Shown here: in pieces, positions 20,711 to 46,796 of the stretch
How positions within the stretch are numbered: position 1 is the stretch's first letter
How the letters are laid out: every line of letters begins with the position of its first letter
Assembly: GCF_055900595.2 (NCBI RefSeq)
Contig: NZ_CM148325.1
Direction: 5' to 3' (one strand)
DNA: 64,000 nt
The notes under the pieces: model-generated
Told to the model about the DNA's origin: nothing
The model's database searches: none
The model's input: the letters and a program-made list of their open reading frames with translations, nothing else
Made by a program: the position numbers and the translations under genes

Positions 20711-20750
20711 TCAGTGTATTGGTAGCTAAAAAGCCAGGGGCGGTAGCGTG
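20711..20750 (+). promoter_or_regulatory. JUMPStart element with ops site (GGCGGTAGCGTG at 20739..20750) in the wza leader
   Basis: Exact ops motif; cagtg...ggtagc...ggcggtagcgtg arrangement typical of RfaH-dependent polysaccharide operons. Confidence 0.8.
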
Positions 20751-25701: not shown

Positions 25702-26190
25702 ATGCTGGAAGATCTGCGCGCCAACAGCTGGAGTTTACGCCCGTGCTGCATGGTTCTTGCCTATCGCGTTGCTCATTTTTGTTCAGTGTGGCGCAAAAAA
25801 AACGTCCTCAACAATCTGTGGGCGGCCCCGCTGTTGGTGCTGTATCGCATTATCACCGAATGCATTTTCGGTTATGAAATCCAGGCCGCCGCGACCATTG
25901 GCCGACGCTTTACTATCCATCACGGCTATGCCGTAGTGATCAATAAAAACGTGGTCGCGGGGGATGATTTCACCATTCGCCACGGCGTCACTATCGGCAA
26001 TCGTGGTGCCGATAACATGGCATGTCCACACATTGGCAACGGCGTCGAACTCGGTGCCAACGTCATTATTCTCGGCGATATCACGATTGGTAACAACGTT
26101 ACCGTGGGGGCGGGCAGCGTGGTGCTCGACGCAATCCCGGACAACGCGCTGGTGGTGGGAGAAAAAGCGCGAGTGAAGGTAATTAAATGA
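25702..26190 (+). CDS. wcaB: Colanic acid acetyltransferase WcaB (hexapeptide repeat, 162 aa)
   Basis: Left-handed beta-helix hexapeptide repeats in translation. Confidence 0.9.
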   Translation: MLEDLRANSWSLRPCCMVLAYRVAHFCSVWRKKNVLNNLWAAPLLVLYRIITECIFGYEIQAAATIGRRFTIHHGYAVVINKNVVAGDDFTIRHGVTIGNRGADNMACPHIGNGVELGANVIILGDITIGNNVTVGAGSVVLDAIPDNALVVGEKARVKVIK

Positions 26191-27404
26191 ATATTCTGCA
26201 ATTTAATGTGCGACTGGCGGAAGGCGGGGCGGCAGGTGTGGCGTTAGATCTCCACCAGCGCGCGCTGCAACAGGGGCTGGCGTCACATTTTGTCTACGGC
26301 TACGGCAAAGGCGGCAAAGAGAGCGTCAGCCATCAGAACTATCCGCAGGTCATCAAACATACGCCGCGGATGACCGCGATGGCGAACATTGCCCTGTTTC
26401 GTCTGTTTAATCGCGATCTGTTCGGCAATTTCAATGAGTTATATCGCACCATTACTCGCACACCGGGACCGGTGGTCCTGCATTTTCATGTGCTACACAG
26501 CTACTGGTTGAATCTTAAGAGCGTGGTGCGCTTTTGCGAAAAAGTGAAAAACCACAAACCGGACGTCACTCTGGTCTGGACGCTACACGATCACTGGAGC
26601 GTTACCGGACGCTGCGCCTTTACCGACGGTTGTGAAGGCTGGAAAACGGGCTGCCAGAAATGCCCGACCTTAAATAACTATCCGCCGGTGAAGATTGATC
26701 GCGCACACCAGCTGGTGGCGGGCAAACGCCAGTTATTCCGCGAGATGCTGGCGCTGGGCTGTCAGTTTATTTCCCCCAGCCAGCATGTGGCTGATGCTTT
26801 CAATAGTCTGTACGGTCCAGGGCGTTGCCGGATTATCAATAATGGCATTGATATGGCAACCGAAGCGATTCTGGCGGACTTGCCTCCGGTGCGCGAAACC
26901 CAGGGCAAGCCGAAAATCGCGGTGGTGGCGCATGACCTGCGTTACGACGGCAAAACTAACCAGCAACTGGTGCGCGAGATGATAGCGCTGGGCGACAAAA
27001 TCGAACTGCATACCTTCGGTAAGTTCTCGCCGTTCACCGCTGGCAACGTGGTTAATCACGGCTTTGAAACTGACAAGCGCAAGTTGATGAGCGCGCTCAA
27101 TCAGATGGATGCGCTGGTATTCAGTTCTCGCGTCGATAACTACCCGCTGATTTTGTGTGAGGCGCTATCGATTGGTGTGCCGGTGATTGCCACCCATAGC
27201 GATGCGGCGCGGGAAGTGCTGCAAAAATCCGGCGGTCAAACCGTCAGCGAAGAAGAGGTGCTGAAACTGGTGCAGTTAAGCAAACCGGAAATCGCGCAGG
27301 CGATATTTGGTACCACGCTGGCTGAGTTCAGCCAACGCAGCCGCGCCGCCTACAGTGGACAACAGATGCTGGAGGAGTATGTCAACTTCTATCAGAATCT
27401 GTAG
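26187..27404 (+). CDS. wcaC: Colanic acid glycosyltransferase WcaC (GT1, 405 aa)
   Basis: ATG at 26187 overlapping the wcaB stop. Confidence 0.9.
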   Translation: MNILQFNVRLAEGGAAGVALDLHQRALQQGLASHFVYGYGKGGKESVSHQNYPQVIKHTPRMTAMANIALFRLFNRDLFGNFNELYRTITRTPGPVVLHFHVLHSYWLNLKSVVRFCEKVKNHKPDVTLVWTLHDHWSVTGRCAFTDGCEGWKTGCQKCPTLNNYPPVKIDRAHQLVAGKRQLFREMLALGCQFISPSQHVADAFNSLYGPGRCRIINNGIDMATEAILADLPPVRETQGKPKIAVVAHDLRYDGKTNQQLVREMIALGDKIELHTFGKFSPFTAGNVVNHGFETDKRKLMSALNQMDALVFSSRVDNYPLILCEALSIGVPVIATHSDAAREVLQKSGGQTVSEEEVLKLVQLSKPEIAQAIFGTTLAEFSQRSRAAYSGQQMLEEYVNFYQNL

Positions 27405-28596
27405 CTACCTGCTGCTGCCGCTGATTTACCTGCTGGTTAACGTCAAAATCGCCCAGCTTGGCGAAAGTTTCCCCATCACCATCGTCACTTTTTTACCTGT
27501 CTTGTTACTGCTGTTTTTAGAGCGCATCAGCGTTAAAAAATTGATGATTGCCTTAGGGATTGGTGCGGGACTCACGGCGTTTAACTACCTGTTTGGTCAG
27601 TCGCTGGATGCCAGTAAATACGTCACTTCAACTATGCTGTTTGTCTATATTGTGATCATTATTGGCATGGTGTGGAGTATTCGTTTTAAAACAATTTCGC
27701 CACACAACTATCGCAAGATATTACGTTTCTTTTATCTGGTGGTGGGGCTGGTGGTGGCGCTGGCGGCGGTGGAGATGGCGCAAATTATCCTCACTGGCGG
27801 CAGCAGTATTATGGAGTCGATTTCGAAATATCTGATTTACAGCAACAGTTATGTGCTGAATTTCATTAAATTCGGCGGCAAGCGCACGACAGCACTTTAT
27901 TTCGAACCGGCATTTTTCGCTCTGGCATTAATCTCAATTTGGCTCAGCATCAAACAGTTTGGTATCAAAACGCCTAAAACCGATGCTATGATTCTCGCAG
28001 GGATAATATTATCCGGATCGTTTTCAGGGGTTATGACCTTTATCCTGTTTTATTTGTTGGAGTGGGCGTTTCAATATCTGAACAAAGAGGCGATTAAGAA
28101 AAAGTTACCGTTAGCATTGATTTCTCTGGCTGTATTCCTGGTTGGTGTGGTAATCGCGTTTCCTTATATTTCCACCCGCTTGGGCGATTTAGGTACGGAA
28201 GGATCGTCATCGTATTATCGTATTGTCGGTCCACTGGTGATGGTCGGTTATTCTTTGAGCCATATTGACGGTGTAGTCAGATTTGGCTCACTTTATGAAT
28301 ATGTCGCATCATTCGGAATATTTAACGGTGCGGATGTCGGAAAAACCATAGACAATGGTTTGTATCTGCTGATTATTTATTTTTCCTGGTTCGCAGTGCT
28401 TTTATCACTGTGGTACATGGGGAAAGTGATAAAAATGATGATCAACGCTTTTGGTGATAACCGCAATTTTCGCGTGCAATTATATCTTTTCACTCCGGTA
28501 TCGCTGTTTTTTACCGGTTCGATATTTAGCCCGGAATATGCATTTTTAATCGTCTGTCCGTTTATTTTGCGAAAAGCGTTAAATATTACGAGGTAA
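27379..28596 (+). CDS. wcaD: Colanic acid polymerase WcaD (Wzy-like, 405 aa)
   Basis: ATG at 27379 ([15 protein letters not shown]...); polytopic membrane protein; overlaps the wcaC 3' end by 26 bp. Confidence 0.88.
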
Positions 28597-35285: not shown

Positions 35286-35366
35286 GAAACCGCGGTGTAA
35301 ATAACGACAAATATAAAATTGGCCGTTTCGGTCAGGGCCAACTATTGCCTGAAAAAGGGTAACGAC

Positions 35367-39666: not shown

Positions 39667-39694
39667 GTTGTTGTTTTCGGTTCCGACAACGGTT

Positions 39695-40172
39695 GCCGGG
39701 TGCAGCGTAAAACGCCTTATCCATCCTACGGTTCTGTGCTCGGGACCTGTAGGCCTGATAAGACGCGTCAGCGTCGCATCAGGCACTGAATGCCGGATGC
39801 GGTGTGAACGCCTTATCCGGCCTACGGTTCAGGGCTTGGATCTTGTAGGCCCGATAAGACGCGCCAGCGTCGCATCAGGCACTGAATGCCGGATGCGGCG
39901 TAAAACGCCTTATCCGGCCTACGGTTCTGTGCTCGGGTCTTGTAGGCCTGATAAGACGCGCCAGCGTCGCATCAGGCACTGAATGCCGGATGCGGCGTGA
40001 ACGCCTTATCCATCCTACGGTTCTGTGCTCGGGACCTGTAGGCCTGATAAGACGCGTCAGCGTCGCATCAGGCACTGAATGCCGGATGCGGCGTGAACGC
40101 CTTATCCGGCCTACGGTTCTGTGCTTGGATCTTGTAGGCCTGATAAGAGGCGTCAGCGTCGCATCAGGCAAA
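39695..40172. repeat. Large BIME array: about five tandem units (period about 94-101 bp) of alternating REP palindromes
   Basis: Repeated gcctgataagacgcg...cgtcgcatcaggc and gccggatgcggcg...gccttatccggcctacgg units between wzxC and wcaK. Confidence 0.85.
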
Positions 40173-40230
40173 AAGCGGCAACGAACAAAACAAACGCAGC
40201 CTCACCTGGCATCAAATTTATGAGGAAAAA

Positions 40231-45458: not shown

Positions 45459-45497
45459 CAGTGCACTGGTAGCTGTAAAGCCTGGGGCGGTAGCGTG
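45459..45497 (+). promoter_or_regulatory. JUMPStart element with ops site (GGCGGTAGCGTG at 45486..45497) for the O-antigen operon
   Basis: Near-identical to the wza-leader JUMPStart at 20711..20750. Confidence 0.8.
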
Positions 45498-45505
45498 TCT
45501 AGGGG

Positions 45506-46796
45506 CAGGGAAAGATTATCAGAAGTACACTTTTTGTACTAAATAATTCGCATTTTATGTTCAAAAATTGAGATATCCCTCATTACCTAAAACTGTTTTT
45601 CACAGCTTATATATGATCAAATACTCCTTGCTTAAATAAGGAGAACAAAATGGAACTTAAAAAATTGATGGAACATATTTCTGTTATTCCCGATTACAGA
45701 CAAGCCTGGAAAGTGGAATATAATTTGTCGGATATTCTACTGTTGACTATTTGTGCCGTCATTTCTGGTGCAGAAGGCTGGGAAGATATAGAGGATTTTG
45801 GGGAAACACATCTCGATTTTTTGAAGCAATATGGTGATTTTGAAAATGGTATTCCTGTTCACGATACCATTGCCAGAGTTGTATCCTGTATCAGTCCTGC
45901 AAAATTTCACGAGTGCTTTATTAACTGGATGCGTGACTGCCATTCTTCAGATGATAAAGACGTCATTGCAATTGATGGAAAAACGCTCCGGCACTCTTAT
46001 GACAAGAGTCGCCGCAGGGGAGCGATTCATGTCATTAGTGCGTTCTCAACAATGCACAGTCTGGTCATCGGACAGATCAGGACGGATGAGAAATCCAATG
46101 AGATTACAGCTATCCCTGAACTTATTAACATGCTGGATATTAAAGGAAAAATCATCACAACTGATGCGATGGGTTGCCAGAAAGATATTGCAGAGAAGAT
46201 ACAAAAACAGGGAGGTGATTATTTATTCGCTGTAAAAGGAAACCAGGGGCGGCTAAATAAAGCCTTTGAGGAAAAATTTCCGCTGAAAGAATTAAATAAT
46301 CCAGAGCATGACAGTTACGCAATGAGTGAAAAGAGTCACGGCAGAGAAGAAATCCGTCTTCATATTGTTTGCGATGTCCCTGATGAACTTATTGATTTCA
46401 CGTTTGAATGGAAAGGACTGAAAAAATTATGTGTGGCAGCCTCCTTTCGGTCAATAATAGCAGAACAAAAGAAAGAGCCAGAAATGACGGTCAGATATTA
46501 TATCAGTTCTGCTGATTTAACCGCAGAGAAGTTCGCCACAGCAATCCGAAACCACTGGCACGTGGAGAATAAGCTGCACTGGCGTCTGGACGTGGTAATG
46601 AATGAAGACGACTGCAAAATAAGAAGAGGAAATGCAGCAGAATTATTTTCAGGGATACGGCACATCGCTATTAATATTTTGACGAATGATAAGGTATTCA
46701 AGGCAGGGTTAAGACGTAAGATGCGAAAAGCAGCCATGGACAGAAACTATCTGGCGTCAGTCCTTGCGGGGAGCGGGCTTTCGTAATCTTGCCCTG
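45506..46796 (+). mobile_element. ISAs1-family insertion sequence (H-repeat-like), about 1.29 kb
   Basis: Imperfect terminal inverted repeats: cagggaaagatta at 45506..45518, and cagggcaagatta as the reverse complement of 46784..46796. Encloses a single intact transposase ORF. Boundaries approximate. Confidence 0.75.
45650..46786 (+). CDS. ISAs1-family transposase (H-repeat-associated protein, 378 aa)
   Basis: ATG at 45650 with RBS aaggag. The sequence [50 protein letters not shown]... is characteristic of H-repeat/YhhI-family DDE transposases. Confidence 0.85.

Follow-up and report, generated by a model that had tools for sequence, protein, structure and literature searches.

The colanic acid capsule genes wcaC and wcaD of E. 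coli share a 26-nt overlap that is genuine, ancient and kept by selection. In our reading, to which we assign a probability of about three in four, the junction is a maintained one at which wcaD starts from the ATG at 27379 and is probably translated in a manner coupled to wcaC, through a mechanism that involves a Shine-Dalgarno sequence (SD) and a predicted RNA hairpin. The window analyzed is a stretch of 64,000 nucleotides from contig NZ_CM148325.1 of NCBI RefSeq assembly GCF_055900595.2, and the features that bear on this reading are collected in Table 1.

Table 1 Features at the wcaC/wcaD junction (positions are those of the window)
Feature	Position	Strand	Description	Basis
wcaC coding sequence	26187..27404	+	Colanic acid galactosyltransferase, GT4 family; 405 aa; TAG at 27402-27404	ORF list, RefSeq, TIGR04015
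wcaD coding sequence	27379..28596	+	Colanic acid polymerase, Wzy-type; 405 aa; ATG at 27379-27381	Sequence, RefSeq, TIGR04010
Dual-coding overlap, 26 nt	27379..27404	+	First 8 wcaD codons and 2 nt; final 8 wcaC codons and stop	
Rejected upstream in-frame start candidates (TTG and GTG)	27307..27357	+	Poorly conserved; upstream frame not protein-like	
Ultra-conserved island, 42 nt	27363..27404	+	CAGATGCTGGAGGAGTATGTC...CTGTAG; lowest diversity in wcaC-wcaD	
wcaD Shine-Dalgarno GGAGGAG	27371..27377	+	Within wcaC codons Leu-Glu-Glu; 1-3 nt spacer to ATG	
Predicted RNA hairpin	27362..27402	+	SD in 5' arm, AUG in loop, 3' arm reaching the wcaC stop	
Hairpin 5' arm (predicted)	27362-27378		ACAGAU.GCUGGAGGAGU; contains the SD	
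Hairpin apical loop (predicted)	27379-27384		AUGUCA; start codon within	
Hairpin 3' arm (predicted)	27385-27402		ACUUCU.AUCAG.AAUCUGU; ends on first base of the wcaC stop codon	

The start of wcaD within wcaC

An earlier note on this DNA had placed the wcaD ATG inside the 3' end of wcaC, with an overlap of 26 bp in different frames, and on this the sequence, the ORF list and the RefSeq annotation agree. Both sequence and ORF list put wcaD in the +1 frame relative to wcaC, and the mechanically called ORF of the wcaD frame begins upstream, at the TTG at 27307. The overlap is already in the reference annotation: it is found in K-12 MG1655 (wcaD 2129661-2130878, wcaC 2130853-2132070) and in strain M160133, which is 100% identical, and the arrangement is an ordinary and well understood one. 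The earlier description of the remaining junctions of the cluster, as mostly 1-4 bp overlaps or short gaps, is also borne out. From wza to wcaM there are 19 junctions, including three overlaps of 4 nt (wcaB/C, gmm/wcaI and wcaK/L), 11 gaps of 1-26 nt and four bigger gaps (54, 177, 192 and 564 nt), and wcaC/wcaD is the only long overlap among them. The two genes are co-directional within this cluster, behind a single JUMPstart element, and like coupled gene pairs they share an operon and have an overlapping stop and start.

Both products can be identified over their full length. WcaC scores 896 bits against the NCBIfam WcaC equivalog TIGR04015 (cutoff 785), with residues 1-405 aligned to positions 1-405 of the 405 in the profile, C-terminus included, and Pfam GT4 domains are found in it. 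WcaD scores 872 bits against the NCBIfam WcaD equivalog TIGR04010 (cutoff 590), with residues 1-404 aligned to profile positions 1-404 of 404, N-terminus included. NCBIfam was used for WcaD, as a Pfam scan with a set lacking PF27321 gave no match to this protein.

Conservation was assessed in 81 loci from different Enterobacteriaceae species, with window diversity and codon counts given for 79 species. The ATG, the 26-nt length of the overlap and the TAG are identical in all 81 loci, so this is no ORF artefact produced by chance; conservation of the overlap across the family was a check that the earlier note had proposed, and the overlap passed it unchanged. The WcaD N-terminus, MS(R/T)SIR(I/V)CSYLLLP, is conserved across 16 genera, and residues 1-8 have a majority identity of 0.94. 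For the wcaD frame, the amino-acid conservation value is 0.57 before the ATG, against 0.94 and 0.88 after it, and codons 10-55 have the periodicity of coding sequence (pi of 0.196/0.057/0.467 at codon positions 1/2/3).

Long overlaps that arise from a wrong choice of start are a recognized artefact class in prokaryotic annotation, and the earlier note had allowed for a true wcaD start outside wcaC. Such a start could lie downstream, for example at Met56 (+165; ATG 27544..27546, + strand), or upstream, at TTG 27307 (-72) or GTG 27355 (-24). The upstream reach of the mechanical ORF can be counted in favor of this explanation, as can the failure of cell-free profiling, described below, to see initiation at the annotated ATG. 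However, the downstream ATG is present in only 70 of the 81 loci and the codons that precede it (10-55) are coding, while the upstream TTG and GTG occur in only 53 and 49 loci, respectively; between the annotated ATG and +165, intermediate starts each occur in at most 37 of the 81 loci. In two loci an upstream candidate is lacking altogether. The in-frame stop 5' of the ATG shifts between -42 and -231 among loci and lies at most 60 nt upstream in eight of them. Against a wrong start there is also the protein-level conservation of codons 1-55, the cell-free data set, which lists no alternative initiation site within -30..+153, and four distant pairs whose polymerase gene starts within the wcaC homologue or at its very end. 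We consider a wrongly annotated start very improbable, and the alternative of a start outside wcaC is refuted. Judged from these comparisons, WcaD is translated from the ATG at 27379, 26 nt before the wcaC stop.

Among more distant homologues, the overlap measures 4, 14, 20 and 23 nt in WcaC/WcaD pairs that are 27-47% identical, and the homologue P0141, a fragment at 51% identity, has a 26-nt overlap according to gene calls. The overlapping arrangement is ancient.

The +1 relation between the frames could also suggest programmed +1 ribosomal frameshifting that yields a WcaC-WcaD fusion protein, and the SD-like element just upstream superficially resembles the stimulator of prfB. However, 27379-27404 contains no prfB-like slippery +1 site (CUU UGA), wcaC ending in CAG AAU CUG UAG, and wcaD has a conserved ATG and an SD of its own. 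Fusion proteins of ~810 aa are absent among 179 + 227 homologues, and some species have stops in the wcaD frame 42-60 nt upstream of the ATG. With neither a slippery motif nor homologues of fusion length, a frameshift site was rejected, and we regard this explanation as almost certainly wrong.

Conservation and predicted structure around the ribosome-binding site

The island listed in Table 1 has a pi of 0.037 against a median of 0.223 and is the lowest 42-nt window of the 2.4-kb wcaC-wcaD span (79 species). The four codons CAG, CTG, GAG and TAT upstream of the ATG are all invariant in these species; in the remainder of wcaC, just 1 of 168 codons for invariant amino acids is invariant at the codon level. 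Among E. coli genomes, an 80-mer around the junction is found unchanged in 3167 of 4736, compared with 9 of 4731 for a control 80-mer taken 100 nt upstream. In wcaD, a second window of low diversity (27929-27970) mostly reflects invariant residues that have only one or two codons.

Several constraints can be recognized in the island. The Cys8 codon of wcaD is TGT in 79/79 loci, by which the wcaC stop is retained, since TGC would abolish it; the next stop in the wcaC frame lies at least 33 nt (at least 11 codons) downstream. The SD is invariant except for its one variable synonymous site, 27377 (G/A). Its duplex with the 16S 3' tail, calculated at -9.3 kcal/mol with a spacer of 2, is the third strongest of the 20 cluster starts. 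Spacers of 1-3 nt between SD and AUG are suboptimal. The freezing of synonymous sites upstream of the ATG points to the ribosome-binding site GGAGGAG and perhaps to the hairpin. On the sequences compared, conservation at the junction exceeds what two protein-coding constraints would need; dual coding together with the SD accounts for most of the invariance. Outside the SD core, the invariant sites include 27365, with which the CAG codon ends, and 27369, with which the CTG codon begins.

RNA folding predicts a hairpin that places the SD in its 5' arm and the AUG in its loop. Taken alone it has a fold energy of -16.4 kcal/mol, and its z is -2.2 in a 120-nt context. The hairpin is predicted in 20/20 sequence variants, at -10 to -17 kcal/mol, and the RNAalifold consensus is the same hairpin. 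Positions 27365 and 27369 are both paired in the single-sequence fold, while the consensus pairs 27365 and leaves 27369 unpaired. In the alignment, 99.2% of cells pair and two-sided changes number zero, so covariation gives the hairpin no proof; with both arms invariant, compensatory changes are missing. At the two common variable sites of the island, pairing is kept through one-sided changes, from U-A to U-G and from G-U to A-U. Shuffle controls for the hairpin were uninformative. Among the 20 cluster starts, the region from -30 to +30 of wcaD has the most negative energy (-20.1 kcal/mol), with wcaI (-19.8) and wcaB (-19.3) near, and the pairing probability of its start region, 0.74, is second to that of wzxC (0.76). 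Junctions of the distant WcaC/WcaD homologues have no significant hairpin (z = -1.25 to +0.79), meaning that the predicted structure, if functional, would be specific to this lineage.

Invariance beyond coding needs might instead mark the site of a trans-acting regulator, either CsrA or a small RNA, that controls synthesis of the polymerase in place of a coupling device acting in cis. CsrA recognizes GGA at ribosome-binding sites, and two GGA motifs lie at 27372-27377. These motifs are in the predicted stem, however, not in its loop. Scanned against Rfam at a permissive threshold, the junction matched no family or known element, and literature searches found no link of wcaD to such regulation. 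A regulator of this kind has, in our estimate, very little chance of being the explanation.

Coupling of wcaD translation to wcaC

Published cell-free initiation profiling by INRI-seq (PMC9825163, Tables S2-S4) includes a synthetic K-12 wcaD transcript, spanning -30..+153, whose junction sequence matches the window exactly. This transcript was present at 96.7 CPM yet gave 0 start footprints in 5/5 replicates, and no alternative initiation site is listed for it (PMC9825163). Neighbors of similar abundance were detected, wcaA with values of 21-32 and wcaE with 90-121 (PMC9825163). In our own count, INRI-seq was silent for all four cluster genes with an overlapping start versus 4 of the 16 others (one-sided Fisher p ~0.014). 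The zero signal on the isolated wcaD start is consistent with wcaC-dependent translation of the gene; it is moderate evidence only, since ~30% of all E. coli genes go undetected by INRI-seq (PMC9825163). In vivo Ribo-RET values in Table S2 of the same study are zero for the entire cluster (PMC9825163), and the TRAINSPOTTER N-terminomics data hold no WcaD peptide; neither data set is informative on the wcaD start, because the cluster was unexpressed under the conditions used. Literature searches on the wcaC/wcaD overlap or the wcaD start codon returned no paper that addresses either.

A ribosome could also initiate on wcaD independently, using the strong SD of the gene itself, with conservation reflecting the two coding constraints plus the SD and with the hairpin as an incidental feature. 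The strength of the SD duplex is in keeping with this, as are the lack of covariation support for the hairpin, its absence as a significant structure in distant homologues and the frequency with which genes escape INRI-seq. In addition, a strong SD could permit a degree of independent initiation in living cells, in which the region is held open in any case by ribosomes translating wcaC. Against this stand the absence of footprints in every replicate with the transcript present, the suboptimal spacer, and the invariance in 79 species of 27365 and 27369, which lie outside the SD core, set against the 1/168 background. Moreover, the SD has a predicted pairing probability of 0.97 in a model of the INRI-seq transcript. 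Independent initiation is, on balance, an unlikely account of the junction.

The earlier note had argued that the longer overlap implies tight translational coupling. Coupling is the best explanation that we can offer, with indirect support from the embedded SD and its frozen sites, the predicted hairpin and the INRI-seq silence of the isolated start. The argument from length, on the other hand, is unsound. Coupling efficiency generally drops as the distance between stop and start increases (2025 review, PMC12548453), and the cluster genes with 4-nt overlaps are equally silent in INRI-seq.

Coupling could operate as follows. In free mRNA, the SD and its flank (27362-27378) would pair with wcaD codons 3-8 (27385-27402), a stretch that doubles as the end of the wcaC coding sequence, and leave the AUG in the loop; the spacer between SD and AUG is, moreover, very short. 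A ribosome completing wcaC would open the hairpin and pause at the foot of the 3' arm, on the UAG, and the SD would be left single-stranded. WcaD synthesis could then begin by either of two routes. The terminating ribosome may go back ~23 nt to the AUG, by termination-reinitiation or scanning, or a 30S subunit may bind the exposed SD, as in coupling by RNA unfolding. The expected outcome would be a membrane polymerase made only alongside WcaC and at a fixed low ratio to it.

A stricter form of this idea, which we put forward tentatively and think somewhat doubtful, is that the island acts as an obligate coupling switch. The wcaD ribosome-binding site would be closed unless a ribosome terminates on wcaC, and the polymerase would come only from such ribosomes. 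If this is true, the adjacency and overlap of the two genes down to ~27% protein identity, despite rearrangement of the rest of the cluster, would further suggest that WcaC and WcaD need to be produced together at the membrane, perhaps assembling co-translationally into a glycosyltransferase-polymerase complex.

Significance and comparison with known systems

The start-codon question is settled for the widely annotated wcaD. Its long overlap with wcaC does not stem from faulty annotation, and WcaD should therefore be expressed and modelled from the Met at 27379. Care must be taken in the engineering of colanic-acid and other Wzy-dependent clusters, as splitting wcaC from wcaD is likely to alter or abolish polymerase synthesis. 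The same can be expected from recoding the last 14 wcaC codons, or from a stop or polar insertion in wcaC. The overlap reveals no new kind of biology; it does offer the debate on coupling at overlaps far longer than 4 nt a clean natural case for which cell-free data are published.

Termination-reinitiation has been described at overlapping gene pairs of the ATGA or TGATG type (Huber et al. 2019, PMC6728339; review PMC12548453). As in these classical pairs, wcaC and wcaD run in the same direction in a single operon, the second gene starts inside the first or at its end, the SD is inside the upstream coding sequence and the isolated downstream start is silent. The classical 4-nt form is used at three other junctions of the colanic-acid cluster. 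Classical overlaps measure 1 or 4 nt, whereas that of wcaC/wcaD measures 26 nt, so a terminating ribosome would have to go back ~23 nt; for this pair, coupling is also something that we infer. A published frequency for E. coli overlaps of at least 20 nt was sought in PMC6728339 and not found there.

Both mechanisms of coupling are documented, and long overlaps have precedents in the coat-lysis pairs of phages MS2 (-50 nt) and fr (-38 nt) (PMC12548453). Back-scanning to the nearest start is also documented, and rpmI-rplT is a case of coupling by RNA unfolding (PMC12548453). These systems share with wcaC/wcaD a long out-of-frame overlap and a start that is closed by structure and freed by nearby termination, as is predicted for wcaD. 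They were established by experiment, whereas the wcaC/wcaD hairpin is a prediction. The phage overlaps are also longer and serve as a lysis timer, while wcaC/wcaD belongs to a chromosomal biosynthetic operon.

Mis-annotated long overlaps resemble the junction in two respects, an overlap far above the usual 1-4 nt and several candidate starts in the mechanical ORF. They differ in that the start, length and stop of wcaC/wcaD are invariant in 81 species, the WcaD residues encoded in the overlap are conserved as protein and no downstream start is conserved. The wzy polymerase genes of O-antigen and capsule clusters are generally described as poorly expressed. WcaD can be compared with these, being a Wzy-type polymerase of the Wzx/Wzy pathway whose autonomous initiation is undetectable in vitro. 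In contrast to a weak ribosome-binding site alone, the SD of wcaD is strong but predicted to be sequestered, and WcaD output would follow from coupling to the preceding glycosyltransferase.

The wcaC/wcaD overlap and the wcaD start codon

Translational coupling of overlapping genes is textbook knowledge. The earlier note had described a 26-bp overlap in which the wcaD ATG lies within the 3' end of wcaC, and every detail of this is borne out by the raw sequence and by RefSeq, with wcaD in the +1 frame relative to wcaC. The same boundaries are found in the RefSeq annotations of the identical strain M160133 and of K-12 MG1655 (wcaD 2129661-2130878, wcaC 2130853-2132070), and both proteins match their NCBIfam equivalogs end to end (WcaD, residues 1-404 on the 404-position profile TIGR04010; WcaC, residues 1-405 on the 405 positions of TIGR04015). 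The overlap is therefore already known, being present in reference annotation and curated family models. By megablast, 4796 of 5426 complete E. coli genomes contain the region. The stretch from wza to wcaM has 19 junctions, of which this is the sole long overlap; the others are mostly short, as had been noted, with three 4-nt overlaps, 11 gaps of 1-26 nt and four larger gaps. What our analysis adds is comparative proof that wcaD starts at ATG 27379, a frozen 42-nt island, a predicted hairpin that would sequester the wcaD ribosome-binding site, the finding that overlap of WcaC and WcaD genes is deeply conserved, and a link between the wcaD start and existing INRI-seq data.

Features in and around the wcaC/wcaD junction and elsewhere in the window
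Feature	Position	Strand	Remarks
wcaC ORF	26187-27404		405 aa; TAG stop 27402-27404; ORF list and raw sequence
wcaD	27379-28596		405 aa; ORF list and raw sequence
wcaC/wcaD overlap	27379-27404		26 nt common to both frames
wcaD Shine-Dalgarno (SD) sequence, GGAGGAG	27371-27377	+	duplex with 16S tail -9.3 kcal/mol
Predicted RNA hairpin	27362-27402	+	from folding of the region
naRNA4 (Rfam) matches	39752-40111	minus	in wzxC-wcaK gap
JUMPstart/ops	20712-20750		upstream of wza; known cis element
JUMPstart/ops	45459-45497		upstream of O-antigen cluster; known cis element
algC RNA motif	35313-35362		just before cpsG; known cis element
ISAs1-family transposase	45650-46786		closely follows galF where the O-antigen region begins; annotation of identical strain M160133

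To the window were added 80 WcaD-encoding loci from different Enterobacteriaceae species (genera include Salmonella, Citrobacter, Enterobacter, Lelliottia, Kosakonia, Buttiauxella, Cedecea, Mangrovibacter and Atlantibacter), giving 81 loci; the 80 share 69-81% nucleotide identity with the window across 480 nt spanning the junction. Conservation of the overlap across Enterobacteriaceae, a check proposed with the original observation, proved complete, with the ATG, the 26-nt overlap and the TAG in the same place in 81/81 loci. No conserved alternative wcaD start was found among the in-frame candidates of these loci. Upstream, counting from the A of the ATG, a TTG at -72 occurs in 53 loci and a GTG at -24 in 49, the in-frame stop varies in position from -42 to -231, and two loci have no upstream in-frame start candidate at all. 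Downstream, each in-frame start occurs in at most 37 loci before the ATG at +165, itself present in 70. Majority-residue conservation in the wcaD frame is 0.57 over the 15 codons preceding the island, 0.94 over codons 1-8 and 0.88 over codons 10-55. Diversity at positions 1, 2 and 3 of codons 10-55 is 0.196, 0.057 and 0.467, a periodicity that is the signature of a translated frame; since the wcaC stop precedes these codons and the next conserved ATG follows them, initiation must fall within wcaC, no later than 27404. The N-terminus MS(R/T)SIR(I/V)CSYLLLP is kept in 16 genera. The invariant ATG, the lack of a conserved alternative and the coding signature in codons 10-55 refute, on comparative grounds, the suggestion that the true wcaD start lies outside wcaC, and a wrong annotated start is very unlikely. 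One homologue record (L029, CACSKA010000001.1), filed under Chryseobacterium sp. 18061, has a wcaC-wcaD locus resembling that of Citrobacter (WcaD identity 91%) and is probably mislabelled or contaminated.

Few WcaD relatives with less than 50% identity emerged when 1.84 billion representative proteins were searched. In the recovered DNA contexts the upstream gene is a WcaC homologue (37-47% identity) and the polymerase starts in or on its end; at one homologue locus, L084, the upstream neighbour differs. The overlap is 14 nt in L082 (WcaD identity 44%; rest of cluster rearranged), 20 nt in L086 (33%; AAGGAG 7 nt before the ATG and an in-frame stop immediately upstream), 23 nt in L085 (27%), 4 nt in L083 (29%; GTGA) and, from gene calls only, 26 nt on the fragmentary contig of the homologue P0141 (51%). 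The motif M-L-x-E-Y-x-x-x-Y-x-x-L-stop is retained at the WcaC C-terminus, and the position of the polymerase start shifts along this motif. Because these distant pairs also overlap, the arrangement is much older than Enterobacteriaceae, which have their own version of it, 26 nt long and frozen in sequence. WcaC also carries a four-cysteine motif, GRCAF-DGC--W---C--CP, in its N-terminal GT4 domain (residues ~141-160, window about 26607-26666), retained in alignments of homologues down to 38% identity, which suggests a metal-binding insertion.

A frozen island and a predicted hairpin

Across 79 species, positions 27363-27404 (-16 to +25) form the lowest-diversity 42-nt window in the 2.4-kb wcaC-wcaD span (pi = 0.037 vs a median of 0.223). 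Dual coding explains the constraint downstream of the ATG. For instance, wcaD Cys8 is TGT in 79/79 loci because TGC would destroy the wcaC stop, adding at least 11 residues to WcaC. Upstream of the ATG, where wcaC alone is coding, the codons CAG, CTG, GAG and TAT are invariant (4/4), compared with 1 of 168 invariant-amino-acid codons in the rest of wcaC and 13 of 212 in wcaD outside the overlap, so the nucleotide sequence as such, RNA or DNA, is under selection. The SD, whose duplex is the third strongest in the cluster and which lies just 1-3 nt from the ATG, accounts for part of this selection; the synonymous sites 27365 and 27369, also frozen, fall outside its core. That the island is a site for a trans-acting regulator is highly improbable. 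Within E. coli, 3167 of 4736 genomes share an identical 80-mer around the junction, compared with 9 of 4731 for a control 80-mer 100 nt upstream. Further into wcaD, the codon run TCA TTC GGA ATH TTT AAC GGT (28309-28329; S311-G317 in an invariant protein motif) is nucleotide-invariant in 79 species, the Ile third base excepted, including four-fold sites in two Gly codons and one Ser codon, a synonymous constraint without explanation.

Folding predicts a hairpin whose 5' arm, ACAGAU.GCUGGAGGAGU, contains the SD, and whose 3' arm, ACUUCU.AUCAG.AAUCUGU, is formed by wcaD codons 3-8, which are also the last wcaC codons. The apical loop would hold the AUG, and the final pair would use the U of the wcaC UAG. 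The E. coli hairpin by itself is predicted at -16.4 kcal/mol; the same structure is predicted in 20/20 sequence variants among the 81 loci (-10 to -17 kcal/mol) and is the RNAalifold consensus. Of the 20 cluster starts, wcaD has the lowest fold energy from -30 to +30 (-20.1 kcal/mol, with wcaI at -19.8 and wcaB at -19.3 near) and, at 0.74, the second highest pairing probability after wzxC (0.76). The two common island polymorphisms retain pairing (U-A to U-G at -12/+18; G-U to A-U at -2/+8). No compensatory double changes were found in the hairpin, both arms being invariant, and shuffle controls are uninformative for the same reason. Folding of the distant homologue junctions found no significant structure. 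The hairpin fits all the observations, yet is unproven. At 27384-27386, E. coli (window and K-12) has AAC where most other genera have TCG, a change of all three bases of one wcaC codon that replaces Ser with Asn in WcaC and Arg3 with Thr in WcaD, and adds a G-C and a U-A pair atop the predicted hairpin (-16.4 vs about -12 to -14 kcal/mol).

A separate observation concerns the wzxC-wcaK gap (39667-40230), which holds four tandem REP/BIME-type repeats matching Rfam naRNA4, a repeat with ~30 copies in each E. coli genome. At 564 nt the gap is longer here than in K-12 (275 nt), so the array is expanded in the window.

In vitro initiation and probable coupling to wcaC

In INRI-seq, all start regions of K-12 were synthesized, pooled and translated in vitro in the presence of retapamulin, with one transcript per start region comprising 30 nt upstream and 153 nt of ORF (Hör et al. 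2022, PMC9825163). The K-12 junction sequence is identical to that of the window. Transcript abundance for wcaD was 96.7 CPM, yet its annotated start had 0 footprints in 5/5 replicates, and wcaD is absent from the table of alternative initiation sites; similarly abundant neighbours gave signal (wcaA 21-32, wcaE 90-121 CPM) (PMC9825163). When this exact transcript is modelled, the hairpin forms with an SD pairing probability of 0.97. All four cluster genes with an overlapping start (wcaC, wcaD, wcaI, wcaL) were silent, compared with 4 of 16 others (one-sided Fisher p ~0.014; the wcaC transcript was scarce, 4 CPM). Coupling may be a principle of design throughout this operon. The 4-nt-overlap genes wcaC, wcaI and wcaL start at 26187, 32512 and 41508, and strongly structured start regions also occur at wcaB, wcaI and wcaL. 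About 30% of all genes went undetected in INRI-seq, and its authors report that undetected starts carry stronger predicted structure (PMC9825163). Independent initiation of wcaD, with the hairpin incidental, is possible, if rather unlikely. Neither in vivo Ribo-RET nor an N-terminomics data set holds any cluster signal, because the cluster is unexpressed under standard conditions.

The junction combines a fixed start, an overlap, an embedded SD, constraint beyond coding and no autonomous initiation in vitro, and we infer that wcaD translation is coupled to wcaC. Alternatively, a +1 frameshift could make a WcaC-WcaD fusion; this is excluded for practical purposes, as a slippery site is absent at the overlap, homologues include no fusion-length protein, and in-frame stops precede the wcaD ATG in some species. 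The rationale for coupling may be that it holds the membrane polymerase, which is of the Wzy type, to a low and constant proportion of the glycosyltransferase, and that the polymerase is never produced alone. These findings can be used in the annotation and refactoring of polysaccharide clusters, but would not surprise a specialist.

A ribosome on the last wcaC codons, pausing at the UAG, would keep the 3' arm in its mRNA channel, leaving the SD single-stranded. The terminating ribosome could then shift back ~23 nt to the AUG, aided by SD/anti-SD pairing, or a 30S subunit could load onto the exposed SD; both routes are described in a 2025 review (PMC12548453). Coupling efficiency usually drops with distance (PMC12548453), so the length of an overlap is not itself evidence of tighter coupling, and the earlier note's step from a longer overlap to tight coupling is unsound on its own. 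Precedents are found in the fr and MS2 coat-lysis junctions, with -38 and -50 nt spacing (PMC12548453).
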